DNA of 64,000 bases from an uncultured Acidobacteriota bacterium (GTDB lineage Bacteria; Acidobacteriota; Blastocatellia; RBC074). The stretch is taken from positions 256,001 to 320,000 of the forward strand of contig CAWCKY010000002.1 in NCBI GenBank assembly GCA_963796275.1, read 5' to 3'. Made by a program: the position numbers and the translations under genes. This document shows, one piece after another, positions 1 through 45,751 of the stretch (its first letter is position 1; every line of letters starts with the position of its first letter). Under the pieces are notes generated by a model. That model did no database searches. It was not told where the DNA came from and was given only the letters and a program-made list of their open reading frames with translations.

Positions 1-1198
1 CTGTGCCGAACTCGGTGCCGAAGATTTCGGCGGCGCCGGCAGTGACGATGTTTGCTCCGACGGCGGGACCGCGCGCGAGCACAGCCAGCGAGCCGGTGAC
101 GCGGCGCACTTCCACGCGGCGGCGAACATACTGCTGCGGCCCGATATTTTCGTAAACCCAGGTGCCACCGTGGATGTCGTGTAAGACTGCTGACCATGGC
201 ACGACCAGGCTTTCTTCAGTCGCTTTTTCTGAAAGCGTCACTCCCATCTTCTGGCCGGGGCGTAGGGAGCCGTCCTGATTGGCCAATTCGAAGTACAGGT
301 CGGCCGTGTCGTTCAGAGGATTGGCAGTGGGCGGAGCGTTGATGGGGCGAGCGGAGCGTGTTGCGGTGCCTGGCGCCTCATTCAGCGCATGAACTCGCGC
401 AGTTTGACGGCGGTCAATCAAACTTAAGTCGCCGACGTACACCGGCACCCGAATCCAAACAGTGGCGAGGTTGACCACTTCGAAGAGGGCCCCGCCGCTG
501 GGAACGGTCTGGCCCGGGCTAACCAAGACTCTCTGAATCAGGCCATCCTGCGGAGCTGTAATGGTGAATGCGGCATCACCAGAGACAGGCGCGTTGACAT
601 AACGGTCAAGCCGCTCGCGCGCCGCCTTCAGATCGTTTTCGGCGAGGCTAAGTTCTTCGCGCGCCTGTTCAACGGCTTTCTCGCTGCCAGCGCGGTCATG
701 CAAAAGTCGTTCGGCGCGCTTGAAGCGAGCGCCTGCGGCGTCAACCCGCGTCTGTGTATTGGTCACGTCGCGTTCCAATTGCACGCGTAGGTCGCGTTCG
801 GGCGGAAGCAGGGGGGTTAGGCGAAAGAGCGCCTGCCCCTTGCTCACAAACAGCCCAACTACGAGCGGAGCATAGGCCGCGAGAGTGCCGCTCACCGGAG
901 CCGCGACGCTGATGGCGCGATCGGGCGGGAGTACTATTTCACCGGCAAAAGTCCGAGTCTGGGCAACGGTTTTAACCGCGACAGGCGCGGTGGCGATTCC
1001 CAGGCGCTCTTCGGCCTTCGGAGAAAGTTTGACCCTCGCCAGTTCGGACTCTTTGACAGGGCTCTCGACTTTTGCTGCCGGTTCTGCCATCTGACTCCCT
1101 GCGGCCTGTGGCTTTGAACAGCTGCACAACGAGATCGATGAGACGGCGATGATGAAAAGCAGCAGCCCGATCATCGCTCCTGAGAATGGCGGGCGCAC
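1..1198 (-). CDS. Efflux RND transporter periplasmic adaptor (MFP) subunit, running off the window edge
   Basis: Manual translation from GTG at 1198: VRPPFSGAMIGLLLFIIAVSSISLCSCSKP...ELARVKLSPKAEERLGI...AGAAEIFGTEFGT. Lipoprotein-like N-terminus; directly downstream of the TolC-like gene. Confidence 0.85.
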   Translation of the reverse strand, partial: MRPPFSGAMIGLLLFIIAVSSISLCSCSKPQAAGSQMAEPAAKVESPVKESELARVKLSPKAEERLGIATAPVAVKTVAQTRTFAGEIVLPPDRAISVAAPVSGTLAAYAPLVVGLFVSKGQALFRLTPLLPPERDLRVQLERDVTNTQTRVDAAGARFKRAERLLHDRAGSEKAVEQAREELSLAENDLKAARERLDRYVNAPVSGDAAFTITAPQDGLIQRVLVSPGQTVPSGGALFEVVNLATVWIRVPVYVGDLSLIDRRQTARVHALNEAPGTATRSARPINAPPTANPLNDTADLYFELANQDGSLRPGQKMGVTLSEKATEESLVVPWSAVLHDIHGGTWVYENIGPQQYVRRRVEVRRVTGSLAVLARGPAVGANIVTAGAAEIFGTEFGT

Positions 1199-1205
1199 AA
1201 TCAGT

Positions 1206-2630
1206 TTAGCGGTTGGCAATCAGCCTCCTTCCGACGCTCCGTTCGAGTTGCGCTAATGCACGCGCGGTAGCGACCTGGTAATCAGCTTCGCGCAATCGTT
1301 CATCGGAGTAGCGGCGCGCGGTTTCGAGCACGAACAGGTAGGACACATCGCCCGAGCGGTAGGCCGTCTCGGCCAGGCGAATGTTCTGTTCCAGCGGCAG
1401 CAGCACGCGCGTCCGCCACAGTTGATGCGTTGCGCGCGCCTGCGTAAGTTGCAGATAAGCCTCGCGTACTCCCGATACGACTCGTTGCCGGGTGGCGATC
1501 AGTTGTTTGGCGGCGCGTTCGATCTCCGCCTCTGCCCGCGAGATGTTGCCCTGATTCCGGTTGAAGATCGGCAGATCGATCAGCAGGCCCGGCCCTTGCT
1601 CGAAGCCATTGGCGCCTCGCCCGTACTCCTTGGCGATGGCCGTGACATTGATGATACGCGAACGCTCCCACCTGGCGCGCGCTCCGGCTGCTTCGATGGC
1701 AAGCTCCCCGGCCTTCACCTCCGGCGCGGCCTCGAGCGCCTGTTTGATCAGTTCGTTGAGCGATTCTGATTCCGCTGCGGTATTTGAAGCAGTGGAAGGT
1801 GCGGCGATCCGCACAGTCGTCGCGCGCACACTGATGATCTGGCTGGCCGCCGGGGCATGCCGCGACGGCGCGGCGATGATATTCACTCTTACGTCGTCAT
1901 TGCCGAAGCCTAACAACGCGCGCAAATGCTCGCCGGCGAGCGCCGAATCTTGTATGAATCGCGCCTCCTGCTCTTCCGCCTGGCGCGCATCGATGACGGC
2001 GGCGTTGGTTTCCAATTCGCTGATGTCGCCCGCTCGCAGCCGGGCATTAACGATGACGGCTATTTCCCGGCGCTCGCGCGCGATCTCCCTGACGATGCCG
2101 GCGCGCGTGTTCGCCGCCGAATAGTCGGCGTAAGCTATACGAACATCGCGTACCAGATCGAGCGCGCGCCCCACCAGTGTTGCGCCGACACGCTCCTCTT
2201 CCAGTTTGGCCGCCGCTACGCGCCGAGGCCGCTGCCAGATAGTCTCAATCGGCCAGCTGGCGACTGCTTCCAGGATCCGAAAACTGAAGGGAAAGATCAT
2301 CGTCAGTTGCGGGTTGGCGAGCAGACCAGCCTGAATCACGTCGGCGCGCGCCAGCCCCAACGCCGTCATCTCGGCTTGCAACGACGGGTTGTTCCACAGC
2401 GCAATCGCGACGGCCTCGTCTTCCGTCACTCCGTCATCGAGAGAGACGCCTTCGGGCATCGCCAATGGTGTCGTCCCCGGATGCAGTGGATGGCCGGTCC
2501 TGCGTTCAACTTCTTTTGACACGCCGGCAGGCTGAGTCTTGGTTTGCGCCCAACCGCTCGTGATTGCTGCGGCGGGCAGGAGGAAGCTGGTGATGACGAT
2601 TAAAAAGGCTCTTGCCCTAATAGCCAGCAT
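1206..2630 (-). CDS. TolC/CzcC-family outer membrane efflux protein
   Basis: 474-aa ORF with signal peptide and OEP-type motifs (AGLLANP, LPIFNRNQGNI, AYRSGDVSYLFVLE); next to the RND adaptor. Confidence 0.9.
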   Translation of the reverse strand: MLAIRARAFLIVITSFLLPAAAITSGWAQTKTQPAGVSKEVERRTGHPLHPGTTPLAMPEGVSLDDGVTEDEAVAIALWNNPSLQAEMTALGLARADVIQAGLLANPQLTMIFPFSFRILEAVASWPIETIWQRPRRVAAAKLEEERVGATLVGRALDLVRDVRIAYADYSAANTRAGIVREIARERREIAVIVNARLRAGDISELETNAAVIDARQAEEQEARFIQDSALAGEHLRALLGFGNDDVRVNIIAAPSRHAPAASQIISVRATTVRIAAPSTASNTAAESESLNELIKQALEAAPEVKAGELAIEAAGARARWERSRIINVTAIAKEYGRGANGFEQGPGLLIDLPIFNRNQGNISRAEAEIERAAKQLIATRQRVVSGVREAYLQLTQARATHQLWRTRVLLPLEQNIRLAETAYRSGDVSYLFVLETARRYSDERLREADYQVATARALAQLERSVGRRLIANR

Positions 2631-3748: not shown

Positions 3749-5182
3749 TCAACCGGCCTGATTCGCAGGTAGAGTGACGCGGAATTGGCTACCGGTATGG
3801 TCAGAATAATGTAAGATCAACGATCCGCCGTGCGCCTCGGCAACCCAGCGTGCGATGGAGAGCCCCAATCCAGCGCCACTGCCGCTATTCCCATTCGCCG
3901 CACGAAACCGGGCTTTATCGGCTCGATAGAAACGCTCGAAGATATGCGGCTGTGCTTCGGCGGGGATACCTGTTCCGGTGTCAGACACGACGACATAATA
4001 GATTGAGTCCGTTTGTCCGAGTTGAAGCACGACCTGCCCGCCGGCGGGCGTATGTTTGATGGCATTATCGAGGAGGTTGAGCAGCATCTGGCGCAGCAGC
4101 GCCTCATCGCCGCGATACGGAGCCTCAACTGCCTCCTCAAACTCGACCGAGACAAGTTTACGCACGGCTAGCACGCCTACGGCGCGCGCAGTTTCGGCAA
4201 CCAGTTCATCCAGATAGAAATCATGCAGCTCCAGCCTGCGCTGCCCGGAATCGGCGCGCGCCAGGGTGAAGAGGTCATCTACGATCTTGTTCAAGCGGCG
4301 GCTCTGTTCGTTGATGATCGCCAGCGTTTCGTGGTATTCGCCCACTTCGCGCCGCGGGCTCTCCATTATCACTTCCGTCGCGGTGTGAATGATGTGGAGC
4401 GGCGTTCGCAGTTCGTGCGAAGCGTCCGCCACAAATTGCCGCTGCTTAGAGAATGATTCCTGCAGGCGAGCCAGCAACTCATTGAATGTCGCGGCCAACT
4501 GACCCAGTTCGTCGCGCGAATTGGTGATTGGCAGACGTTGTTCCAACCTTTCGGCGCTGATGCGCCGCGCGCTGTTTGCCATCTCCATAACCGGCGCCAG
4601 ACTTTTACGGGCCAAAAACGATCCGCCGATCCAGGCCAGCAGCATTGCCGCCGGCACCGCCATCAGAAAAATGACGCGCAAACCGGCCAGGTCTTGTGAC
4701 ACCGCTGCGAGACTTTGGCTGACTACAATTAAATAGCCTTTGTTTTCGCGCTGATACCTCACGCGCCGCGTGGCGACTCGCAATTCTTCTTCCTTACCAT
4801 AGATTCTGCCGATGGTGTGCAAAAATCGAATTTCGTCATCGGTAGGGAAAAGTCGCTCATCCGGCAGATCGGCCTGAAGGTCATTCGACAATACCTTCTC
4901 TTCCAGCAGACGCCCTTGCGCATCGAAGATTGCTGCCGCCTGGTCGGGAAAGTAATGCTCATTTAGAGCGCTGTGTATAGCTTGCGTTTCGCTCTCGCCC
5001 TCATCCAGCTCATAGACCAGGAGTCGCGATATCCCTTCCACGGTTGTTTGCACGCCGGCGTCCAATCGACGGTGAAGCTGGTTCGCCGCCAGCAGGTATA
5101 CGCCAACGCTGAACACGATCAACACGAATGCCAGTGTCCCTGTGTGCCACAGCGTCAATCTAGTTCGCACCGAATCCAGCAT
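3749..5182 (-). CDS. HAMP-domain sensor histidine kinase (CusS/CzcS-like)
   Basis: Two TM segments, HAMP (DELGQLAATFN), H-box ADASHELRTP, N-box NLLDNAIK, G-boxes DTGTG and GAGLGL. Confidence 0.92.
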   Translation of the reverse strand: MLDSVRTRLTLWHTGTLAFVLIVFSVGVYLLAANQLHRRLDAGVQTTVEGISRLLVYELDEGESETQAIHSALNEHYFPDQAAAIFDAQGRLLEEKVLSNDLQADLPDERLFPTDDEIRFLHTIGRIYGKEEELRVATRRVRYQRENKGYLIVVSQSLAAVSQDLAGLRVIFLMAVPAAMLLAWIGGSFLARKSLAPVMEMANSARRISAERLEQRLPITNSRDELGQLAATFNELLARLQESFSKQRQFVADASHELRTPLHIIHTATEVIMESPRREVGEYHETLAIINEQSRRLNKIVDDLFTLARADSGQRRLELHDFYLDELVAETARAVGVLAVRKLVSVEFEEAVEAPYRGDEALLRQMLLNLLDNAIKHTPAGGQVVLQLGQTDSIYYVVVSDTGTGIPAEAQPHIFERFYRADKARFRAANGNSGSGAGLGLSIARWVAEAHGGSLILHYSDHTGSQFRVTLPANQAG

Positions 5183-5186
5183 AGAA

Positions 5187-5882
5187 TCAGGTTGGAAGTT
5201 GGTCGTTTCCCGCCGCCAGCAGATAGCCCTCGCCGCGTAGCGTGCGAATCAGTTTCGGCTCTCGCCCTTCGTCAATCTTGCGTCGCAACCGTTGAATGTA
5301 AACCTCAATCAGGTTCGAAAACGGATCGAAGTTCTCGTCCCAGACGTGTTCGGCGATCTCCGAACGGGAGACAATCTGACCGGCGCGCCTCGCCAGGTAT
5401 TCCAACAAAGCATACTCTTTGGCAGTCAACGCGATCGGTTGACCCGCGCGCTGAACTGCGTGTGAACGAGTATTGATTTTCAGGTCGCCGGCTTCAATTG
5501 TCTCCGGCTGCAAGGACTGGCTCCGCCGCAACAGCGCCCGCACGCGCGCCAGAAGTTCGTGAAAATCGAAGGGCTTGATCAGGTAATCGTCCGCGCCGGA
5601 ATCTAATCCGGTGATGCGATCGCGCACATCATCTAAAGCCGTCAGCATCAGCACAGGTACGCTCGTCCCCCCGGCGCGAATTTCGCGGCAAACCTCAAAA
5701 CCATCTTTCAATGGAAGCATTACGTCGAGGATGATCAGGTCATAGTTGTTGATGCTCGACAGATAAACAGCTTCTTCACCTTCAGCCGCGATATCGACAG
5801 CGAAAGACCGCTCGCGCAACCCTTTCGCCAGCACACGCGCCGCATCAAGTTCGTCTTCAGCCAGCAAAACACGCATCTTCAT
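5187..5882 (-). CDS. OmpR-family response regulator (CusR/CzcR-like)
   Basis: REC domain (LAEDE, ILDVMLP, KPF) plus winged helix (IEVYIQRLRRKID, TLRGEGY); adjacent to the kinase. Confidence 0.93.
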   Translation of the reverse strand: MKMRVLLAEDELDAARVLAKGLRERSFAVDIAAEGEEAVYLSSINNYDLIILDVMLPLKDGFEVCREIRAGGTSVPVLMLTALDDVRDRITGLDSGADDYLIKPFDFHELLARVRALLRRSQSLQPETIEAGDLKINTRSHAVQRAGQPIALTAKEYALLEYLARRAGQIVSRSEIAEHVWDENFDPFSNLIEVYIQRLRRKIDEGREPKLIRTLRGEGYLLAAGNDQLPT

Positions 5883-6449
5883 CCCTTTACATCAGAATCC
5901 TGGCTACTTCAGAGACAATCTCAGAGTGCCGTCCAGCAACTATCATATTATGCGCCAGATAAATACATGATAAACCCGGCGATCTGGCCGCTACCACTTG
6001 TAATTGTCCGTAGTTTGGCTCTGGCATCTGGCGCATTGGATCAGGCAGTTGTAATATTGAAGCGACATTGGAAGACTTCATAAGTGATAGCGGCCACTCA
6101 TTTGCGGTAAGCTCGACCTCGCCGATCACGAACATCCAATGCCGCACAATATGGGCGGCTTTCTTTTTGCGACAGGTTCACTTAGGTCACCCCGCCACTG
6201 CTCGCACATGCGTCTGTAACTCATTAATTCTCACAAGGCTGAGATAGGCGCAATCCAATTGGATCGCAGGTGAGTGGTAACCATAGGGTCGACAGAGATA
6301 GCATCAGACGCATCCGACGTATCGCATGCGACGCGCGCTGATTGCCGCATTCGCCGAAGAACTTGTCCGCGCGCTCAGGCGACTGTCCCGAACGATTCCT
6401 CCACATCAAGATCGCGGCTCATGTGTTGCGCGCCTTCCAGGGACACTTC

Positions 6450-6756: not shown

Positions 6757-7779
6757 TCAGAAACCATAAACCCTACGCCTCGCGCGAGCAGCCAGCCCGA
6801 CCATACTCCGCGCCAACGGACCAGGTATGGCCGCCAACAAACGAAGGGGCAACGGCCCGCTTCCCGCCAGCCGCAATTCTTCTCGGGCTTCCATCCGCTT
6901 CCCTTTGCGAATCAAACAGCGGGCCCTCGTCAGATACTCGTCCTTCAGCGCCGCTTGATAGCGCTCCTTGTGCTGGGCGAGAAATTGCGCGTCGGCCCCG
7001 AACGTTCGCTGAAGCATCGTGATGCGGCACGTCGCCCTGTGCAACGCATCGCAATGTGAGAGTCGATGCCCTTCATGGTCACACTGCCAGACAGTTTCGC
7101 AGTCGAAGTAAGCCGCCTTGCCGATCCTCGCCAGACGCGTGAAACACTCGTGATCATCGTAAACACTGATGTCTTCGCTGAAATGGAGCGCGTCCCCGGC
7201 CTGCTCACGCCGCACAACCGCGGTCTGTGACGACACATAATTTTCCCTTAGCATTGTTTCGTACAGACTGCCGATATGGACGTTGAAGTCCGCCCGGCCC
7301 GGCGGCAGGGAGGCAAGGGACGAATAAGCTACGGGCGGGCCGAGGATATCATCCCAACTCCGCGGGTCGCGATGCCAGCCAAACAAGCCGTTGTATGTTT
7401 CGGTCCCGTCCATGTCCCTCAGGCCGAGATCGCTGAAACAGAACAAGACATCCGGTCGCGCCCGCATAAAAGCTCGCTGCAAGACTAGCTTGTCGGCGAA
7501 CCATTCGTCGTCAGAATCATTAAACGCCACGAGCGGGTTGCGGGCTTCAGCGATGCCGCGGTTGCGCGCCGCGCCGACGCCGCGGTGTGATCCGAGCACA
7601 TAGCGGATCCGATCGCGATATGACTCGAGCGCCTGCTTGGTGTTATCAGTGGATCCATCATCCACGACGATGACCTCGTCTCCGGGAGACATCATCGCCA
7701 GAACGGATCGCAACGACCGGCCAATGTGTTTGGCCCGATTATAAGTGGGGATAATTACGCTGACCGATAATTCATTCAT
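6757..7779 (-). CDS. Glycosyltransferase family 2
   Basis: VSVIIPTYNR, VVDDGSTD, AARNRG and FNDSDD motifs. Confidence 0.92.
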   Translation of the reverse strand: MNELSVSVIIPTYNRAKHIGRSLRSVLAMMSPGDEVIVVDDGSTDNTKQALESYRDRIRYVLGSHRGVGAARNRGIAEARNPLVAFNDSDDEWFADKLVLQRAFMRARPDVLFCFSDLGLRDMDGTETYNGLFGWHRDPRSWDDILGPPVAYSSLASLPPGRADFNVHIGSLYETMLRENYVSSQTAVVRREQAGDALHFSEDISVYDDHECFTRLARIGKAAYFDCETVWQCDHEGHRLSHCDALHRATCRITMLQRTFGADAQFLAQHKERYQAALKDEYLTRARCLIRKGKRMEAREELRLAGSGPLPLRLLAAIPGPLARSMVGLAARARRRVYGF

Positions 7780-7848
7780 CTAAACCTCAAAGGATACTCC
7801 ATCCATAGCGAGCATCTGGGCGAGCTTGGATGGAGAGGAATTTTGAGA
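7780..7848 (-). repeat. Solo copy of the IscB-element 3' end hairpin (PATE/MITE-like)
   Basis: aaacctcaaaggatactccatccatagcgagcatctgggcgagcttggatggagaggaattttgaga aligns with 40581-40648, and the 49-nt core is 47/49 identical to 44391-44439. Confidence 0.85.
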
Positions 7849-7937
7849 CCCCGCGACTTAGGGTAAATCACTTCAAGTATAGAATGACATGTAGTATCAT
7901 TCGTTCCGTGAAATTGACATGTGCTAGACCCTGACCT

Positions 7938-9113
7938 TCATATTGCTCCCTTCTCACTCGCGAATAATTCGTTGCGTAGCGGGCGCAGACGGAACTTGTA
8001 GGTGTGGAGCGCCCATCCGATAAAGCTGCGGGCAAAGATGTAGCAGAATGCGTGCGGGCGCGCTGCCGTCGCCCATTCGAGCTTCCAATCCATTTGCGGC
8101 ATTAAGAAGTCAAATTCCTTCGCCCCCTGCGCCAGAAGTTCGCGCAAGACTTCGGAAGTGATGACATGGCCGGGCGCTCCATGACTAAACTGTTCGTCGT
8201 AGGCGGGTTTGAGGAGAAAATATCGCCCGTCGTAAGTCAGACCGTAGTGCATCGCTACGGTGCGGTCGCCGATATCCAGCCGGTAAAGCGAGAGATAGCC
8301 AAATCGCGTCGCTGACCGCGCGACCTCATCGTAAAACTTCCGCGTCTCGGCGGCGCATGCGATGGCCGTTCCTTCCTTGCCTTTCCAACCGGCGCGTTCG
8401 AGCTGGTAGAAACGCTCCAACTCCGTCGGATCGGCCTCCGTCGTGCTGGTAAGCCGCAGGTCGCCTTCTTCTTCCAGCTTACGTTGGCGGCGGCGCACCG
8501 AATAGCGGAACTTCGAGGTGGTGTGCTTGAGGGCCGCCTCCAGCGTCGTGACCTGTCCGGGTAGCGCGATGTAGGGGCCGGGCGACATCTTCCACTGTCC
8601 AGTCAAATGGCCGTCCGAGCTTGCAAGACTGAGCAGGCTTTCGCTCGCCCCGCCCTCCGGCACTAACCTTAACTCGATCAGGTCCCAGCCGCGCCTCTCT
8701 CTCAACAATTGCCAGACGGCCCGCACCGCCGTCGGAACGTCCTGACCCGCGCCATGAGCCAGATCGAAGCGACACGAGTGCACGTTCGTCGGACTGCGCA
8801 ACATTCTGACCGGCAAGCCGTGAAAGAGCGCCCGCCCCTCGATGAGCGGCAGCAATGCGCGTAAACGTCCATTCACACGTGCCGTAACGATCAAAAGTCT
8901 CTTTTGCGGCGCAAAGGCGCGCATATAAGATTCGATCCACTCCGGGCGGAAGAATGGCTGATCGCAAGGCCCTTCGGCACATAACTCGCGCCACTCGTCA
9001 GCAAACCGCTCGATGATTTCGACGCCGCCTGAGAACGCCTCCGCCACAATCTTCGCCTCGGCTACGGTTTTCAAATTCACGATTGAAGAACTGTCCAAGC
9101 TACTGGTTAACAT
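7938..9113 (-). CDS. GNAT-family N-acetyltransferase (CelD/BcsL type)
   Basis: WRELCAE...PFFRPEW, GWKGKEGTAI, LKPAYDEQFSHGAPGH, FDFL. Start ATG at 9113 chosen. Confidence 0.85.
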   Translation of the reverse strand: MLTSSLDSSSIVNLKTVAEAKIVAEAFSGGVEIIERFADEWRELCAEGPCDQPFFRPEWIESYMRAFAPQKRLLIVTARVNGRLRALLPLIEGRALFHGLPVRMLRSPTNVHSCRFDLAHGAGQDVPTAVRAVWQLLRERRGWDLIELRLVPEGGASESLLSLASSDGHLTGQWKMSPGPYIALPGQVTTLEAALKHTTSKFRYSVRRRQRKLEEEGDLRLTSTTEADPTELERFYQLERAGWKGKEGTAIACAAETRKFYDEVARSATRFGYLSLYRLDIGDRTVAMHYGLTYDGRYFLLKPAYDEQFSHGAPGHVITSEVLRELLAQGAKEFDFLMPQMDWKLEWATAARPHAFCYIFARSFIGWALHTYKFRLRPLRNELFASEKGAI

Positions 9114-9239
9114 GCGCCATATCCTTATGTGAAAACTTGATTGCGGAGAATGCCGTCTGAGTTCGAAGCTCAAGTAATGCGCCAAATCGAGTTAATAACG
9201 AACGCCTGGCGCACGAGAGTTTTCTGGCTGGATACTCTT

Positions 9240-10238: not shown

Positions 10239-10469
10239 GCAAACCACTCTCGGCTATGCCGTTATCCATTGGTTATTTCTGCTCCGGCTTTGTGCCGGGG
10301 GGGATTCGCAATCTCGCCGAGATTCACGGCGGGGCGATTTCGCTTGAGAAATCGCTGTAGGGGGGAGCGCGCGCAACTCACGCTGCCTGCTTAGGGCGTG
10401 GTGTAGTGGCAAAAATGAGCGAAATCAAAACCGCACTTACGGAGAAAACTTCCGGTTCGGCGCCAGTAG

Positions 10470-10940
10470 CGCCGCGTGCTGTTTCTAATCTCCAAAACCG
10501 GCGCCAGGCTTTTTACGGGCCAAAAACGATCCGCCGAACCAGGCCAGGAGCAAGGCCGCAGGCACTGCCGCCAGAAACCGCGGCGCAAGCCGGCCAGATC
10601 TTGTGAGACAGCTGCGTGACGCTGGCTGAATACACCATATAGCTTTTGTTTTCCCGTGTAAACGTCACGCGTGGCGACTCGCAATTCTTCTCGACAGATA
10701 AACAGCTTCTTCACCTTCAGCCGAGATATCGACCGCGAAAGACCGCTCACGCAACTCTTTCGCCAGCACGCGCGCCGCATCAAGTTCGTCTTCAGCCAGC
10801 AAAACACGCATTCTCAGGCCCTAACATCAGAGTCCATCGTTAACCTGGCTACCTCAGAGACAATTTCAGAGTAGCCTGTTCAGCTTCCATTATACTATGC
10901 GTCAGATAAATACAGGATAAACCGATGATCTGCCTGCTAC
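10470..10940 (-). pseudogene. Degenerate, internally deleted duplicate of the response regulator/kinase pair and its upstream region
   Basis: About 10500-10690 matches about 4593-4790 (kinase), and about 10690-10940 matches about 5755-5995 (regulator 5' end plus upstream DNA). Confidence 0.88.
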
Positions 10941-37745: not shown

Positions 37746-40577
37746 CTACGCCGCGCCGCCCACACCTGTTTGCGAGGGCCGGCGGCGTTGCTCTTCCTGC
37801 CGCTTTTGCTCCTGCTGTCGTCGTTGTTCCTCCTGCCGCCTTTGTTCTTCCTGCCGTCTCTGTTCCGAGGCTCTTTGGCGTTCTTCATTCTGTCGTCGCT
37901 GTTCTTCCTGACGTCGTTGGTCCGCCTGACGTCGTTGATCCTCTTGGCGCCTCTGTTCCTCGACTCTTTGGCGTTCTTCATTTTGCCGCCTCTGCTCTTC
38001 CTGTCGCCGCTGATCCTCCTGTCGCCGCTGCGCTTCTTGCTGCCTCTGTCCCTCGGCTCTTTGGCGTTCTTCATTTTGCCGCCTCTGCTCTTCCTGTCGC
38101 CGCTGATCCTCCTGTCGCCGCTGCTCCTCTTGCTGTTTCTGTCCCTCGACTCTTTGGCGTTCTTCATTTTGCCGACTCTGCTCTTCCTGTCGGCGTTGAT
38201 CCTCCTGTCGCCGCTGCTCTTCTTGCTGTCTCTGTCCCTCGACTCTTTGGCGTTCTTCATTTTGCCGACTCTGCTCTTCCTGTCGTCTTTGTTCCTCCTG
38301 TCGTTTTTGCCCCTCGACTCTTTGGCGGTCTTCATTCTGCCGTCTCTGTTCTTCCTGTCGCCTCTGTTCTTCCTGTCGCCGCTGATCCTCCTGTCGCCGC
38401 TGCTCTTCTTGCTGCCTCTGTCCTTCGACTCTTTGGCGTTCTTCATTCTGGCGTTTCAGTTCCTCGGCTCTCTGGTGTTCTTCTTGCCGTTGACGCCCAT
38501 CATCCCGATTCGGCTCTTCCGATCGGCGAGGTATGTCCCTGTCAACCGGTCGCGTCGGTAGGGTCGGTCGAGGAAATTCTTTATCGTCGGGTCGCGCCGG
38601 CCGAGTTTGATGGGGCGCGTCTTTGTCGCCAGGCCTCGTCGGGAGAACGGGCCGATTTGAATTTCCATCGTTAGGCCGTGTGGGCTGAGCCGGTCGTGGT
38701 CCCTCTCCGTCGTTCGGCTGTGTGGGTTGAGCTGGTCGTGGTCCCTCTCCGTCATTCGGCCGCTTGGGCTTCGCCGGTCGCCCCCCATCATTCGGACGGG
38801 TCGGATGGGTTGGACGCGGTACGTCCCCGTCGTCATGCCGCACGGGTTGAGCTGGTCGCGGTATGTCTCTGTCGTTCGCCTGCCCTGGCCCAGCCGGACT
38901 ATCACCATCTCTGCCTTTTGGCCGTGTCGGCAGAGACGGCCGAGCCACATCCACATCGTTTGGCCGCGTCGGTCGAGCCGATCGAGGACCGTCTTTTTCA
39001 ACCACCCGTGTCGGCAGGGACGGACGAGGTGCATCTTTATCGGCTGGTCGCCCTGGTAGAGCGGGACGGGCAACATCTCTGTCCTTCGATCGTGTCGGAT
39101 GGCCCGGATGATTCGGTCTCGCAGGCCGTTGAACTATCGGTGTTTCGAGCCTGCGCCTGATCTCCGGGCGCTCAACAAACTTAGCACGAGTCGGAACCAC
39201 TCGAACCGGTTTAATCTGGTCCCAATTAACCCACGCGGGTTTCGCTGAGTTATTCGACCTTCTGTCGCGTTTAATGGAAATCAGAGCATCACGCGTGACG
39301 ATCGCACGCCCATTATGGAATCGGCTGCCATCCATGCCGCTGACGCCGCCAGGCGCACGGTAGTTCCGTAGAGAGCCGACAGCTCCACGAAATTTGTTGA
39401 ATCGCCCCTTGTGGCTGTGATGCGCCTCACCGGGCGCTAGCGGACACCATCCCAACCATCGATGACCATTGCGATCTCGATCATGACCCCGATGATCCTT
39501 TCTATCACCCCAGCCAAAAAAGGCGACCAGATGCGGGGACCATCTCCACGGCCGGCCGGTGTGAAATTTTACGCTGGGCACCCAGCACCAACGTTTGCCA
39601 TGAAATGCCCATCGCCCATAATGATATGGGAGCCAACCCCACGGCTCATTTGAGATCCAGGTCCAGCCATATGCTGGACTCCACCGCCAATTCCCGTGAC
39701 GGTATGGAGCCCAATCGGTAGAAGCGCCGCGCGGACACCAAACCCGGCCATAATCTGGGGTATCGAGCCATTCGCCGTACACATCCAGCTCGTGGACGCC
39801 GGGCAGGACATCCGGTACATAACTCGGACTTTGATTGCTTTCTGCTCGCGCGAAGAGCTCTTCATCACGCCGATCGTTCCAAATATCCCAACTGTCCTTC
39901 TCATCGACCGAAGCACTTTGAAATGTGCCCGGATCATCGCCCCTCAACACAACTCGCTGTCCCTGATTGATGACGACCGAGTCTATCTCCTGATTGTCGA
40001 TTAAGGCTTCGCCACGCCACACTACGACCTCTGTCGTACCATCTTCGTCTACATTGATTCGATAAAGACCTTCCTTGAGAAAAACGACAGCTACGGTAGG
40101 AGTGTCGACCTCGAAATAGACAGGATCATCGGTACCATCATCCTTCGCATCCTCTATCTGGAATTGTCGTTTATCCAGACTATCGATCCGGAATGTTGCC
40201 GTTCCGACCGACAGCGCTAAACGAATTGTGTCGTTATTGAATTGGGTAAAGCGAAGGTTGGTATTGTTATTTATTCGGACGATGTTGCGACCGCTCAATT
40301 GGATTTCGGCACGCCCATCGGGTCCGCTGTAAAGCTGATCGCTTTCATCGAGCGGGAGGTTCAGTGTCGCGTCGAACCACTCTTCATTCGAATCGTTGGC
40401 CCGCCGGTAGTTGATCTCGCCCTCGATCAGGCTGACACGGGCGACGTGAATGACTGGATCATCAGCCAGAACGACCGACCCGAACGCCATCTGGGAACAG
40501 ATCATTATCACCATCGGCCAAATACTGCAGGCGCGGTGACGGGGGAAATAATCAACAAGTTTGTGAAAAAACTTCAT
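37746..40577 (-). CDS. Secreted FecR-like/DUF6600-like protein with Pro-rich and Q/E/R-rich repeat tail (943 aa)
   Basis: ARVSLIEGE..RAEIQL (FecR-like), LDVYGEW..WAPYRHGNW..EPWGWLPYHYGRW. ATG at 40577 is preferred over TTG 40589, which lies inside the IscB element. Confidence 0.8.
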   Translation of the reverse strand: MKFFHKLVDYFPRHRACSIWPMVIMICSQMAFGSVVLADDPVIHVARVSLIEGEINYRRANDSNEEWFDATLNLPLDESDQLYSGPDGRAEIQLSGRNIVRINNNTNLRFTQFNNDTIRLALSVGTATFRIDSLDKRQFQIEDAKDDGTDDPVYFEVDTPTVAVVFLKEGLYRINVDEDGTTEVVVWRGEALIDNQEIDSVVINQGQRVVLRGDDPGTFQSASVDEKDSWDIWNDRRDEELFARAESNQSPSYVPDVLPGVHELDVYGEWLDTPDYGRVWCPRGASTDWAPYRHGNWRWSPAYGWTWISNEPWGWLPYHYGRWAFHGKRWCWVPSVKFHTGRPWRWSPHLVAFFGWGDRKDHRGHDRDRNGHRWLGWCPLAPGEAHHSHKGRFNKFRGAVGSLRNYRAPGGVSGMDGSRFHNGRAIVTRDALISIKRDRRSNNSAKPAWVNWDQIKPVRVVPTRAKFVERPEIRRRLETPIVQRPARPNHPGHPTRSKDRDVARPALPGRPADKDAPRPSLPTRVVEKDGPRSARPTRPNDVDVARPSLPTRPKGRDGDSPAGPGQANDRDIPRPAQPVRHDDGDVPRPTHPTRPNDGGRPAKPKRPNDGEGPRPAQPTQPNDGEGPRPAQPTRPNDGNSNRPVLPTRPGDKDAPHQTRPARPDDKEFPRPTLPTRPVDRDIPRRSEEPNRDDGRQRQEEHQRAEELKRQNEERQRVEGQRQQEEQRRQEDQRRQEEQRRQEEQRRQNEDRQRVEGQKRQEEQRRQEEQSRQNEERQRVEGQRQQEEQRRQEDQRRQEEQSRQNEERQRVEGQKQQEEQRRQEDQRRQEEQRRQNEERQRAEGQRQQEAQRRQEDQRRQEEQRRQNEERQRVEEQRRQEDQRRQADQRRQEEQRRQNEERQRASEQRRQEEQRRQEEQRRQQEQKRQEEQRRRPSQTGVGGAA
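37780..38460 (-). repeat. Coding tandem repeat: about 93-nt units built from 18-nt RRQEEQ subunits
   Basis: gactctttggcgttcttcat recurs, e.g. at 38148 and 38241 (93 nt apart). Confidence 0.9.
38530..39115 (-). repeat. Coding repeat: about 14 copies of a 14-aa RPxxPxRPxDxDxP unit
   Basis: RPALPGRPADKDAP, RPSLPTRVVEKDGP, RPAQPTQPNDGEGP, RPTLPTRPVDRDIP and others. Confidence 0.85.
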
Positions 40578-40585
40578 CAGAAACC

Positions 40586-41920
40586 TCAAAAGGATACCCC
40601 ATCCATAGCAGCCATCTTGGGCGGCTTGGATGGGGAGGAATTTTGAGATCGTGCGCTAGCACGATTAATTCCGTAGCCGTCCGCCTTATGAATCACCCGG
40701 CAGTATCGATGGCTGATCCCCTGGATCGTGCCTGCCGCAGTCTTCACATTGAATGAGCCGCTGCTACGCACAGCGACTCGCCCCACATAGCAGCCGATCT
40801 TTTTGCCGGATCTGACATTTGCCTCGACCATATCTCCGGTTCTGAAGCCTTTGACCGTACGTGGGCCTTTGGCTGATGTGCGTGGAAACCCGTACTTGTC
40901 CATCCGGCACATCTGTCGGGTGTTATGCCCTGTCGCCTTGATCTCCAATGGGATAACTCCGTCGACAACGACCTGTGCGGGCGTTGACTTCCCGACGCAG
41001 GCCGCGTCGATCCAGTGCGCCTTGGGCAGGTCTCGCATCGTCCGGTTGTATTTGGTCAGTCCGCCTGATCCTGTCTCGACCGGCAGTCCGAAGCCCTTTA
41101 ACCGCTCCAAGAGCGCCCACCGCGTTGCATTCAACGCCGCCGCATCCTTCAATGGTTCTTTGACCTGCTGCTCGATCTCAGGAAATCCAAACTCGGCTGC
41201 GGTTCTAGTACCCTTCCGTTGATTGCAACCAGCACAGGCCACCGTCAGATTCGAGACTCGATCACTGCCTCCTCGTGATTCCGGAATGATGTGTTCGATC
41301 TGCAGGGGAATATCTGTCTTTGAACAGTAGGCGCACTTCCGGCCCCACTTCTCAAGCAGATACTCTCTCACCTCGTATCCGGCCAACTCACCCTGCTGAT
41401 ACTCGATTCCGGAGATATCCGGATTCTCCAGCAACTGAGTGTCGAACTTTACCAACTCCATTGAGAGGCCCGAGATCGGATAGAGCCGAGCCAGCCGATT
41501 GACCCACGTCTCAATATTGCTGATCCGGCTCTTGAGCGAAGGTGGCAGCCACCCTTCTGGCCGCCTCCGGTTGAGAAATCGCGGCTTCCGGTATCTGGTC
41601 TTTCTTGAGCGCCGACTGCACCGGATCGCTCTCCGTGCAGCTAAAGCCTGCTTGATTGCCTCTCCTCGGTGCTCAATCTCGGCTGCAAAGACGACCTGTC
41701 CGGATCCCTGATTGACTATCGCCACTCCGGTCTTTCTGGATCCTGGATCCAGCTTGAGCCGAAGATCCGGCACTTGTTCCTCAACCACGCGCTTGAGGAT
41801 GATCGTGAATGGCGCTCTCCTGAAGACTGCGGCCTTGCCTTCCTTCAGCAGGAGTCTGGCCCGTACCGCCGAAGTCGGCGCCAGAGGTCTTCTGTTTTGA
41901 TCGATGACTGCTACTTGCAT
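40586..41920 (-). CDS. iscB: RNA-guided endonuclease IscB
   Basis: PLMP domain (RPLAPT), RuvC-I LDPGSRKTG, Arg-rich bridge helix, RuvC-II MELVKFD, HNH (CAYC..IEHIIPESRGGSDRVSNL..CAGCN), RuvC-III HWIDAAC. Confidence 0.96.
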   Translation of the reverse strand: MQVAVIDQNRRPLAPTSAVRARLLLKEGKAAVFRRAPFTIILKRVVEEQVPDLRLKLDPGSRKTGVAIVNQGSGQVVFAAEIEHRGEAIKQALAARRAIRCSRRSRKTRYRKPRFLNRRRPEGWLPPSLKSRISNIETWVNRLARLYPISGLSMELVKFDTQLLENPDISGIEYQQGELAGYEVREYLLEKWGRKCAYCSKTDIPLQIEHIIPESRGGSDRVSNLTVACAGCNQRKGTRTAAEFGFPEIEQQVKEPLKDAAALNATRWALLERLKGFGLPVETGSGGLTKYNRTMRDLPKAHWIDAACVGKSTPAQVVVDGVIPLEIKATGHNTRQMCRMDKYGFPRTSAKGPRTVKGFRTGDMVEANVRSGKKIGCYVGRVAVRSSGSFNVKTAAGTIQGISHRYCRVIHKADGYGINRASARSQNSSPSKPPKMAAMDGVSF

Positions 41921-42214
41921 TGTGAGAATGGCCCTTTCGAGCCGCTGGCATTGCTGCCGTTATGTTAGCCTCGACAATGATGCCTGAGCTTGTTAGTTCA
42001 ACGCACTGGCGATTACCCGTAACCGATATTTAACGCTGAACGACAGTTGCCACGGACTGGCTATCGCATCCGTGGGTGTCTCGGTTTAATAACCTAACTC
42101 AAACATCGTAGCTGCATGCCTTTCGGCTATCGCTTAGTCTGGTCAACCAGGCTCATCGGTGACCCGACAAGCCCCCACTATAGTTGCAAAGCAACTTAGT
42201 GGCGGGTGGGTGAC
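41921..42214 (-). ncRNA. omegaRNA (HEARO-like) scaffold
   Basis: HEARO-like blocks in order: GTCA-CCC..GGGGGCTTG, GTTGACCAGACT, CTACG, GACACCCACGGATGC..CCAGTCCGTGG, CATTGTCGAGG. The 3' end is approximate. Confidence 0.85.
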
Positions 42215-42767
42215 AGCTTCCTCCGGCCAAGTCAAAAGAGCTTCTAACTACTTAATTAGATCGATCAGAACCTGCATCATTCTATTCAGAGCTCACGCCA
42301 TGCCCATGACAGCTTCGAACAGATTAGAAAACAGCTCGAAGCCCCCCCGATTCGCGCGCGGAAAGATTCAGCCCGCTTAGCGGTGCGGGGATGAACAGTA
42401 AAATAGTGGTCGAGGGTTACGCCAATCGGGCAGATGACTAAGATGGACTGTCATTACCTCTGGGTAGCTCGCACGGCGGATATCATTCGGGTCGATGTTA
42501 CGTCTTTCGTACACGGGTGACTGGAAAAAACACGCTCTGTACGGATGAAGGTTGATCTGGTCACACTGCGGTATGAGAGCCGTCGGCTCGTTTACCGGCG
42601 AAATCTTTAATATGTTCCGTTTTATGAATATCGAAACGCCGAAGGCTGAAATTCGCCCCTAAGTCCGTTTATTTTGGTGATTGGGAGCTCATCGGCAGGA
42701 TAGGGCACAAGTAATTTACAGGATTTAAATCCTGAACTGGCGCTTTGTGTAAAGCTCTTTCTACGGT

Positions 42768-43748: not shown

Positions 43749-44379
43749 CCTACTCCCTTTCCAATTAGTTAACATGAATAGTCGAACCAGCGATCTGTTC
43801 TCATCACTTGCTGGCAAGGGTTTCTCCGATTAGCCCTTGATGTTACTTTGGCTTAATGCCAGAACCACCTTGGCCAACAACTGATTTTGTAATAATCATT
43901 CAATGCAGTGGGCACGATAATGAGAAAACGCGGAACTACAGCTTTGAGGGATAGCTGGGTCTCATTGACTTATTCCAACAGAGTTTTCACTCCTTAAAAT
44001 ACATCCCTTTCTAGGTGCCATGATGTGAGATATCACACACGGGTTACTGATATCTCGATTCCGGTTATTCGCGATCGACGAGAATTGCCTAACCTATCTC
44101 AGACGACTGCAGCCGATAGCTACTGGAATCAATGCTTTCGGCTCTGCAGGCTAGGCGCAAGGCTCTAATGTATTCGATCATCCAATCTCTCAAGCTCCAA
44201 GAGCGACAAATATGATTCAGGTGCCTCCCTTTTCGAGAAGACAATCGTTAAAGTTATGAGCAACTGGTTCATCCGCAGCTGAAGAGATGTCATCGATAAT
44301 AATCAGCTTTGATTTTAAACTTTGTTTAAAAAAGTTATTTAGGGATTCAAAGTATTACGGTACGTGGCGGTATTATCAT

Positions 44380-44439
44380 CCGCGAAAGAATACTCCATCC
44401 ATAGCGAGCATCTTGGCGAGCTTGGATGGAGATGAATTT
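44380..44439 (-). repeat. Second solo copy of the IscB-element end hairpin
   Basis: tactccatccatagcgagcatcttggcgagcttggatggagatgaattt; followed by ATGAT on the minus strand. Confidence 0.82.
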
Positions 44440-44478
44440 CGCATCGTGGGCGAATCATTTCGGAGGAACGGGTCGCAG

Positions 44479-45751
44479 TCATTCGTGCCGGAATGCCACC
44501 AGTGGATCGACCTTCGTTGCCCGCCGCGCCGGCAGGTAACAAGCCAGCAGCGCCACGCCGAGCAGCAGCACCGCCGCCGCCGTGAAGGCTTGCCCGTCGT
44601 GTGGCTTGATCTGGAAGAGCAGCGTTTCCAGATAGCGTGCCAACCCGAAGGCCGCCACAAGTCCGACTGCCGCGCCCATCGCGGCCAGCAGCATCCCGCG
44701 CCCGATGACCAGGCGGAAAACATCGCGCGGGCGCGCGCCGAGCGCCAGGCGAATGCCGATCTCGTGCGTCCGTTGCGACACCAGATAGGCCATCACGCCA
44801 AACAGCCCGACCGAAGCCAACAACAGCGCGACAGCGGCGAAGCTCCCCAACAAGAACATATTGAAGCGACGCGGACCGAGTGAGGCGTAAAGCAGTTGCT
44901 CGATGGTCTGGATGTCGATAACCGGCACGTTTGCGTCTATTGAGCGAAGCACGCCGCGCACCGCCGCTGTTTGCGCCGCCGGCTCAGTGCGTGTGCGGAC
45001 GACTAACTTCGATTGTATGGCCCGTGCCATCACTGCTGTCGCGATATAGATCGTCGGCCCTGGCTCGGTCGCCGGCCCGAGGCTGCGGACATCGCCGGCA
45101 ACGCCGATGATCGTGTACGTCTGGTTGCCCAGGCTACGCAGTGTGACCGTCTTGCCGAGCGGGTCTTCGCCGGGCCAGTAACGGCGCGCCATCTCTTCGC
45201 TGATGATCGTCACGGGCTGGCTCTCCGGCACGTCGCATTCATCGAAATCGCGCCCGCGCAGCGTGATGCCGAGCGTGCGCCAATAGCCCGGACTGACAAC
45301 CCGCCAACCGGCCGAAGGCTGACTGCCGTCGGGCGCGACGGCTCTGCCCGGAATCTGCACCTCGCTACTGGTGGGTTCCCGAGGCCGCTCAATGGCACTG
45401 AACTGGTGAGCGCAGCGTCCTGCACGCCGGGCAAGGCTTTGGTTTCACGCAGCAGGCGCGTGTAGAACGCCCAAGATTCTTGATGCCCCGAATAGCGATT
45501 GCGCGCCAGGTTTATCCGCATAGTCAGCAAGTTCTCTGGCTTAAACCCTAGTTCGACATCTTGCAGCTTCGCGAAACTGCGCAGCAGCAATCCAGCGCCG
45601 ATCAGCAGCGCGACTGAGAGCGCCACCTCTGCGATCACTAACGTGCCGCGCAGACGTTGTCGTCCGCCCGCGCCGCCGCTATCTCCTGCTCGACACGGAC
45701 CTTGCGTAGCAGTCCGTAGAGCCGCGTATAGATCAGTCTCAACCAGAACAT
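44479..45751 (-). pseudogene. ADOP-family ABC permease with a large internal deletion and frameshift
   Basis: N-terminus MFWLRLIYTRLYGLLRK joined at about 45680 to the C-terminal half (EVALSVALLIGAGLL...EIGIRLALGA...PARRATKVDP); frameshift near 45360. Confidence 0.85.

Follow-up and report, generated by a model that had tools for sequence, protein, structure and literature searches.

In the genome of an uncultured Acidobacteriota bacterium (Blastocatellia, RBC074; GenBank assembly GCA_963796275.1), the initiation codon of a GT2 glycosyltransferase gene directly adjoins the end of a transposon remnant. The gene lies in a stretch of 64,000 nucleotides (nt) of contig CAWCKY010000002.1 (positions 256,001 to 320,000 of the forward strand), hereafter called the window, and the remnant is a discrete 139-nt insertion at positions 7780-7918, whose boundaries are given by empty orthologous sites. 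Our reading, to which we assign a probability of about 0.7 on sequence evidence, is that the insertion is the deletion-derived relic of a TnpB-type element of the IS200/IS605 family, situated at the GT2 ATG and now supplying this gene with its GAGG, a motif of Shine-Dalgarno (SD) type. The features discussed below are collected in Table 1.

The translation start of GT2 is verified by comparison as the ATG at 7779, and not elsewhere. An in-frame TAG directly precedes this ATG; 23 of 33 metagenome homologues align with the protein from residue 1, and 32 of the 33 from residue 6 or earlier; an ATG is found at the aligned start in 14 of the 15 homologues inspected. The preliminary description of this DNA had placed the transposon end against an ATGAA that is also the GT2 start, with an SD motif in between, and this geometry holds: Pfam, the alignment of homologues and the empty sites agree on the start, and the GAGG stands 5 nt upstream of it, which is an SD distance.

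The empty sites come from two orthologous two-gene loci (L104 and L105) found in metagenomes by a protein-guided contig scan, with the same acetyltransferase gene upstream of a GT2 whose amino acid (aa) identity to the window protein is 88% in L104 and 85% in L105 (dN/dS 0.30 against both). This comparison of the GT2 upstream region in relatives, which had been proposed at the outset, shows that neither locus has the 139-nt segment. With a slash marking the junction, L104 reads ...aggtcaagacctagacccat/ATGAATGAATTATCGG and L105 reads ...aggtcaagatctagccacat/ATGAATGAATTATCGG, the immediate junction in both being ...tagccacat/ATGAATGAA; the occupied site in the window is ...ggtcagggtctagcacat, then the 139 nt, then ATGAATGAATTATCGG. 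Because the two loci join the flanks directly, both boundaries of the insertion are exact and no target duplication is present. Soil-metagenome contigs of relatives (three runs), which carry no expression information, were used for the joint at 7779/7981 only. One of them, 1094 nt long, aligns to 7592-7779 and to 7981-8246, with 72 other letters replacing 201, and its homology break at 7779/7780 gives independent support for the junction between the ATG and the transposon end. Among the DNA of 40 relatives we found no orthologous GT2 locus, only matches resembling the transposon end in two of them (G002 and G005).

L104 and L105 also inform on the native state of the locus. There, 6 nt separate the acetyltransferase stop codon from the GT2 ATG, and the sole GGAGG lies 17 nt upstream of this ATG, a layout that suggests a termination-reinitiation coupling from the acetyltransferase to GT2 in relatives. 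Compared with these relatives, the relic displaces the acetyltransferase stop and the native GT2 leader by at least 139 nt. The acetyltransferase open reading frame (ORF) of the window has, in addition, lost 1 nt at 7938-7960 with respect to L104 and L105, and as a result its stop comes 8 codons sooner and the ORF ends 19 nt earlier.

Read on the minus strand, towards GT2, the relic runs ...CTCCATCC-23 nt-GGATGGAG-TATCCTTT-GAGG-TTTAG and then ATGAATGAA; a longer reading of the same strand is CTCAAAATTCCT-CTCCATCC-(23 nt)-GGATGGAG-TATCC-TTTGAGG-TTTAG-ATGAATGAA. An upper stem of 8 bp and a lower stem of 6 bp make it an imperfect subterminal hairpin, as expected of an IS200/IS605 left end (LE), and the RNA fold predicts a stable two-tier hairpin followed by UAUCCUUU. 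The surviving parts are two hairpins, the linker, the tnpB leader and 11 nt of tnpB, the relic stopping at ...AAATTGAC. Within the window, the 51-nt hairpin core has a single occurrence at up to 3 mismatches (0 of 100 shuffles matched), and a repeat search returned a family of three copies, namely the relic and two others, 40589-40655 and 44385-44451, which are each 82% identical to it over 67 nt. The preliminary description had seen here a solo copy of a transposon end of about 67 bp, with no iscB or omegaRNA: the solo end is real, but its extent is 139 nt. We found no iscB near 7.8 kb, and no HEARO (omegaRNA) near the relic, the sole match of the window being at 41959-42214 on the minus strand and none of the 5 matches of the genome being nearby. 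A consensus scan of the relic found neither promoter nor terminator (terminators: 0 found, 0.5 expected).

The source genome (9.46 Mb, 7 contigs) was searched for this hairpin unit with blastn and an nhmmer profile, which gave 24 full copies, 2 truncated ones and 3 weak matches. Two hairpins and a linker are common to the aligned copies, which then end sharply in either ...TGAGGTTT(N)AG/ATGA[AT] or ...TTTCGCGGATTTTG/ATAAA. As ATGAA and ATAAA are the reverse complements of TTCAT and TTTAT, known transposon-adjacent motifs (TAMs), the unit is an IS200/IS605 LE read on its bottom strand, with ATGAA as the TAM. The lower stem of the LE covaries between subfamilies (CTCAAAA/TTTTGAG versus GCGAAA/TTTCGC), and the second hairpin, seen for example at 7848-7864 and 40640-40662 of the window, keeps its stem in four subfamilies (ATCGTGC/GCACGAT, ATCGTGGGC/GCCCACGAT, GGAGGGG/CCCCTCC and ACCGTGC/GCGCGGT). 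A position beside the hairpin foot, in a possible internal DNA guide, tracks the TAM, with GGATA accompanying TTCAT and GAATA accompanying TTTAT, this being one position in two subfamilies. Nine Y1_Tnp matches show that Y1 TnpA sequences do exist elsewhere in the genome; one of the nine, broken (105 aa open, 1 TGA), is directly beside an LE copy.

The relic had first been labelled an IscB end, a label that has to be replaced. Its closest relative is C6:2822573-2822722 (C2, C6 and C7 designate contigs of the source genome), with 91% identity over ~145-150 nt, as against 82% over 67 nt for the IscB LE, and this relative is the LE of the genome's sole full-length TnpB gene, the full TnpB element being at C6:2821455-2822716. 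The gene of the TnpB in question (375 aa, with OrfB_IS605 and Cas12f1-like TNB domains) lies on the opposite strand and points away from the LE. On the plus strand, the inner edge of the GT2 relic, ...GTTCC-GTGAAATTGAC/ATGTGC, corresponds to the start region of tnpB, which reads ATGAAATTGAC in the full copy, and has GTG in place of the ATG. An IscB origin is thus rejected, the TnpB-type LE being closer and the first 11 nt of tnpB being present.

The letters downstream of the genome-wide copies bear out the association with ATGA and start codons suspected from the window. Among the LE copies with a GAGG linker, 13 of 15 adjoin ATGA[AT], and in nine of these 13 the ATG starts an ORF that is 95 aa or longer (96, 142, 252, 340, 943, 715, 132, 273 and 95 aa), against a background of 21.8% of all 48,482 ATGA[AT] sites (binomial p=3e-4). 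By Pfam, the N-terminus is intact in six of the nine (GT2, DUF6351, PhdYeFM, Abhydrolase_1, adh_short and Glyoxalase, with profile position 1-2 reached in each within the first residues); DUF6600 is uninformative in this respect, and the last two have no Pfam match. In the 9 copies whose flank is ATAA, the linker lacks an SD core and no ORF opens at the junction. As for the other side of the elements, the guides, formed by the omegaRNA 5' flanks, have purine-rich, SD-like sequences in 5 of 5 cases.

Right ends were compared in an alignment of four copies: two TnpB-type elements end in ...GGGTAATTGAC/ and ...GGGTATTGAC/, a third ends in ...GGTAATTGAT/ and the fourth has no right end. The terminus is ...TAATTGAC/ or ...TATTGAC/ in two of the four and ...TAATTGAT/ (TTGAT) in the third; by this alignment the terminal motif is TTGAC, which differs from TTCAT at positions 3 and 5. 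A right-end hairpin, CCCCCACTA...TAGTGGCGGG, is common to the IscB and TnpB elements. It is absent within and beside the relic; blast gave 12 hits for the right end, none of them close to C2:263,9xx.

From these elements we propose the following history. The insertion lies 3' of TTCAT, exactly between the 5' leader and the ATG of GT2, without target duplication. The tnpB body and the right-end hairpin would then have been lost by deletion between two AATTGAC repeats, one in tnpB codons 2-4 and the other at the right-end terminus, either by slippage or through TnpA cutting at the internal pseudo terminal motif TTGAC. Today GT2 would be reached by read-through from the gene upstream of it. Once the weak lower stem, rich in A/U, had opened, initiation would take place from the GAGG in the LE linker, which stands 5 nt ahead of the ATG.

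That this GAGG acts as the GT2 ribosome-binding site (RBS) is plausible. It is the sole SD-like motif within 20 nt of the GT2 ATG (7788-7785), and the spacing GAGG-TTTAG-ATG puts a purine-rich core at SD distance from a verified start in a genome that uses SD sequences, SD cores being found upstream of 1464 of 4162 crude ORF starts (35.2%) versus 363 of 4162 (8.7%) at a control offset. The 3' tail of the 16S rRNA was not found by a motif search. The relic may moreover have been kept because GT2 depends on its SD, as had already been suggested.

One has to weigh this reading against a number of points that run counter to it. In the predicted RNA fold, the GAG of the GAGG is paired in the weak A/U-rich 6-bp lower stem, and the leader as a whole folds no better than shuffled sequences (z=-1.3). 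GAGG is present in 15 of 15 copies of its subfamilies, gene-adjacent or not, so that no local selection is needed to account for it, and, because the lower stem covaries, a constraint on DNA structure explains the LE sequence. Plain decay would also leave such a relic, since relics consisting of a right end alone are about as common as those consisting of a left end alone (7 of the 12 right-end hits versus 7, among IscB- and TnpB-type copies). The bias towards start codons can be explained by purifying selection alone, and a deletion in place is indistinguishable from the insertion of an already shortened element.

Several of these points speak for the alternative that survives best, which we nevertheless regard as unlikely: GT2 would be translated independently of the GAGG, for example by SD-independent initiation on an A/U-rich leader, the motif being only a part of the lower stem. 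Besides the covariation of this stem and the pairing of the GAG, it has on its side the Anaerolineae-type IscB ends, where an SD core is lacking at each of the 8 ATGA junctions that have ORFs, and the fact that only 35% of the crude starts of this genome have one. Yet it leaves GT2 with no second SD-like motif within 20 nt of its ATG and with its native upstream-stop arrangement at least 139 nt away, and it has to accommodate the ATAAA-flanked LE subfamily, which offers no start codon and has no SD core in the same linker.

The preliminary description had left the choice between a decayed element and a PATE (a mini-element); the first of the two fits and the second does not. A complete PATE moved as a 139-nt unit, with TTGAC and a GAATGA/TCATTC hairpin as a substitute right end, would agree with the discrete boundaries, marked by the TAM and, at the opposite edge, by TTGAC, and excision at alternative sites resembling the terminal motif is reported by Meers et al. 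2023 (10.1101/2023.03.14.532601). The genome also has a genuine PATE-like copy, an internally deleted IscB element of ~186 nt at C7:908801-908986, made of a 42-nt right end and an LE. Against this stand the missing canonical right-end hairpin, an inner boundary that is unique to the GT2 relic (the three copies running past it continue into tnpB, and two others stop at ~112 and 89 nt), and the broken state of the sole TnpA adjoining this LE family. With no right-end hairpin and no second copy having the same inner boundary, we rejected a PATE for the GT2 copy and consider it improbable as an explanation. The other short solo LEs of the same subfamily are independent decay products and not a uniform PATE family. 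The GT2 relic is itself probably immobile; it is an ordinary decayed, one-ended left end of the IS605 family, in an unusual and precisely documented position.

A third possibility, that the hairpin is mainly an RNA element (attenuator, terminator or processing site) lowering or regulating GT2 within the operon, has in its favour the stable two-tier hairpin followed by UAUCCUUU, but with a loop of 23 nt, an unexceptional leader fold and the empty terminator scan it appears very improbable.

Table 1. Position of the relic, of its parts and of the other features of the window (- and +, strands of the window).
Feature	Position	Strand	Remarks
GT2 glycosyltransferase gene, intact, 340 aa	6757..7779	-	PF00535, E 6e-30; residues 7-114 = profile positions 1-113
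TAM TTCAT (minus strand: ATGAA)	7775..7779	+	7777-7779 = GT2 start codon; junction conserved in 13 of 15 GAGG-type copies
Relic of IS200/IS605 (TnpB-type) element, 139 nt	7780..7918	+ (transposon top strand = window + strand)	no counterpart at orthologous loci; 91% identity to C6:2822573-2822722
GAGG, SD-like core, 5 nt upstream of ATG	7785..7788	-	3 of 4 bases within the LE lower stem; sequence and RNA fold
LE hairpin, 23-nt loop	7786..7847	-	lower stem CTCAAA (7847-7842)/TTTGAG (7791-7786); upper stem CTCCATCC (7835-7828)/GGATGGAG (7804-7797)
Remnant of second, inner hairpin (ACCC...GGGT)	7848..7864	+	stem covaries among four LE subfamilies; alignment of 26 copies
First 11 nt of tnpB (ATG changed to GTG), ending TTGAC	7908..7918	+	comparison with TnpB ORF 384..1592(-) of locus L009; TTGAC matches the right-end terminal motif
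Acetyltransf_6 gene, co-oriented, upstream of GT2	7938..9185	-	Pfam
Full IscB element	40578..42214	-	omegaRNA (HEARO, 108.8 bits) 41959-42214; iscB 40586-41920, 444 aa, RRXRR and HNH; LE ~40578-40665
Third LE copy of the window, non-SD subfamily	44377..44454	-	flank ATAAT (44376-44372); just after FtsX-family ORF 44479..45360(-)

The full IscB element of the window has the same layout as the relic at its left end. Its flanking ATGAA (40577-40573) starts the DUF6600 ORF of 943 aa, and its LE copy (40589-40655) coincides with the 3' end of iscB. On the 5' side the omegaRNA is flanked by GGAGGAAGCT, which gives GGAGGAAGCT/ATGAAG as the reconstructed pre-insertion site; with this flank, the element sits between a native SD and its start codon. 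We also observed that the iscB ORF runs through the LE hairpin, with its TGA stop inside TTTTGAGG, 8 nt before the DUF6600 ATG (40573-42230), a layout that suggests translational coupling from iscB to the DUF6600 ORF. The latter (37746-40577, minus strand) contains ~10 copies of a 93-nt (18+75) tandem repeat at 37784-38489.

Only one iscB and one tnpB are intact in the genome for this family, which for this reason is regarded as simply decaying, and the genome abounds in debris of IS605-family elements. Fragmentary pieces of tnpB, iscB, LEs and right ends are clustered at C2:40-57 kb, C6:1.78 Mb and C7:1.01-1.03 Mb. Two further internally deleted IscB elements were noted: C7:1014010-1014505, with omegaRNA and LE but without iscB, adjoins a PhdYeFM-like ORF, and C7:675436-676368, with omegaRNA, iscB fragments and LE, adjoins an alpha/beta-hydrolase ORF. 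In the window itself, several collinear direct repeats with 81-92% identity and a spacing of ~4.9-5.9 kb (4562-5976 versus 10469-10923) flank the GT2 region and suggest a segmental duplication around the polysaccharide locus.

We then turned to IscB relatives in other genomes, with a scan that gave 80 loci from Chloroflexota, Cyanobacteria, Nitrospirota and others, the closest being in a Ktedonobacterales metagenome-assembled genome (63% identity). In these loci the LE junction was set only by homology breakpoints between copies, for which 64 loci had partners; the break falls at NTGA in 38 of the 64. Three miscalls lying inside or before the LE (L085, L058 and L081) were kept as failures in the counts of 38, 17 and 21 loci that follow, and were dropped from the 35 junctions tabulated further on. 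In 22 of 38 loci an ORF of at least 80 aa begins at the junction codon, versus 160 of 627 (25.5%) control [AG]TGA sites downstream in the same loci (p=4e-5). Divided by flank, 14 of 17 ATGA-flanked ends adjoin ORF starts (p=2e-6), and the GTGA-flanked ends, mostly cyanobacterial, have ORFs in 8 of 21 cases, no different from the control (p=0.15). By these alignments the association with start codons is supported, outside the source genome, for ATGA-flanked ends only. Many of the junction ORFs have recognisable N-termini: those of L031 and L036, for example, begin with lipoprotein signal peptides, and that of L039 with nucleotide-binding motifs. In a genome of the same genus, a signal-peptide-like ORF comes after an LE copy that ends ...TTTTGAGGGTTTCAG/ATGAAAAAC.

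HEARO was located in 16 of the 20 loci searched, and right-end flanks were inspected for 15. Joining the right-end flank to the TAM rebuilds an RBS-start site in several of them, such as AAGGAGCGAGTCT/ATGAAG in L095 and GAGGAGAGCGCC/ATGAAA in L076; the other rebuilt pre-insertion sites among the 15 have no SD. The presence of an SD and the distance of the iscB stop were tabulated for the 35 curated junctions, whose groups are phylogenetic, clade-bound clusters, so that the table is a lead and not a test. The iscB stop is 6-7 nt before the ATG, without SD, in 8 loci (junction ORF in all 8); a distant iscB stop goes with a GGAGG-type SD in 15 (junction ORF in 8); a close stop and an SD occur together in 2 (both with a junction ORF); neither is present in 9 (4 with a junction ORF); the last locus is an artefact. 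In the cyanobacterial loci L044-L101 the LEs end ...GAGGAGGTTCG/GTGA. A perfect GGAGG precedes the GTG by 3-8 nt, and a stretch containing CCTCC lies upstream within the same end; long ORFs are found at 8 of their 21 junctions only.

It is known that insertion sequences can supply outward expression signals, for example as hybrid promoters, and that in IS200 the left-end hairpin blocks read-in transcription while a stem-loop sequesters the tnpA RBS. The GT2 relic resembles the first in that a transposon end would give an expression signal to a neighbouring host gene, but the signal is here translational, an SD at a fixed spacing from a start encoded by the TAM, and not a promoter. With the second it has in common a structured end overlapping translation signals; those of IS200 serve its own tnpA, whereas the present motif faces outward, to the host gene.

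The closest known systems are the IS605-like elements and PATEs ISGst1-5 of Geobacillus stearothermophilus, described by Meers et al. 2023 (10.1101/2023.03.14.532601). According to the available part of that work, GstIscB/TnpA have TTCAT as their wild-type TAM and a TnpB sibling has TTTAT, the TAM lying 5' of the left end; IS605-family ends, ends shared by IscB and TnpB, PATEs and the co-orientation of IscB with upstream genes were already known from it. Our elements agree with ISGst1-5 in having TTCAT, with TTTAT in a sibling subfamily, a terminal motif that differs from the TAM at positions 3 and 5, common IscB/TnpB end families, an omegaRNA bounded by the right end, a majority of copies without tnpA, and decayed or mini derivatives. 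They depart from it in that the GT2 copy has no right-end hairpin, and the coincidence of TAM and start codon, like the SD of the LE linker, goes unmentioned in that part of the paper. The available part of Hirano et al. 2022 (PMC9581776) gives NTGA as the TAM of IsrB/IscB, which the ATGA and GTGA flanks found here fit; it treats this motif as nuclease specificity only, with no link from the TAM to ATG, GTG or TTG start codons. In the literature searched on IscB and IS605 ends, a 2026 review included, we found no statement that the TAM is a host start codon or that the LE carries an outward SD; priority is uncertain, as the ATGA/GTGA flanks of HEARO elements may have been noted before. PMC13565253 may hold a parallel link between TAMs and translation signals.

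Extending the case of GT2 to the family leads us to a tentative proposal, which we hold at somewhat less than even odds. IS200/IS605 elements with an NTGA TAM, that is many IscB elements and the TnpB siblings sharing their LE, would characteristically live between a host RBS and its start codon, the TAM being the start codon plus A and the omegaRNA guide being the host RBS region. Their LE would have evolved to keep the downstream gene translated, either with an outward SD (GAGG here, GGAGG in cyanobacteria) or by coupling from an iscB stop placed 6-7 nt before the host ATG. If this is true, the niche between RBS and start codon would explain the reported co-orientation of IscB with upstream genes as well as the persistence of LE relics in front of genes.

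What is unusual in the present case is a geometry resolved to the single nucleotide, with empty sites, in which the target motif is the start codon of a host gene and the transposon end carries a well-spaced ribosome-binding motif; this geometry is met again at other sites of the source genome and, in other phyla, with IscB elements flanked by ATGA. For genome annotation, a hairpin repeat immediately before a start codon may be a transposon end that now belongs to the translation-initiation region of the gene. If the arrangement is general, transposons with RNA-guided nucleases could occupy operons while doing little polar damage, host RBS regions would be the source of their guide RNAs, and the orientation bias of IscB would receive a mechanistic reading.

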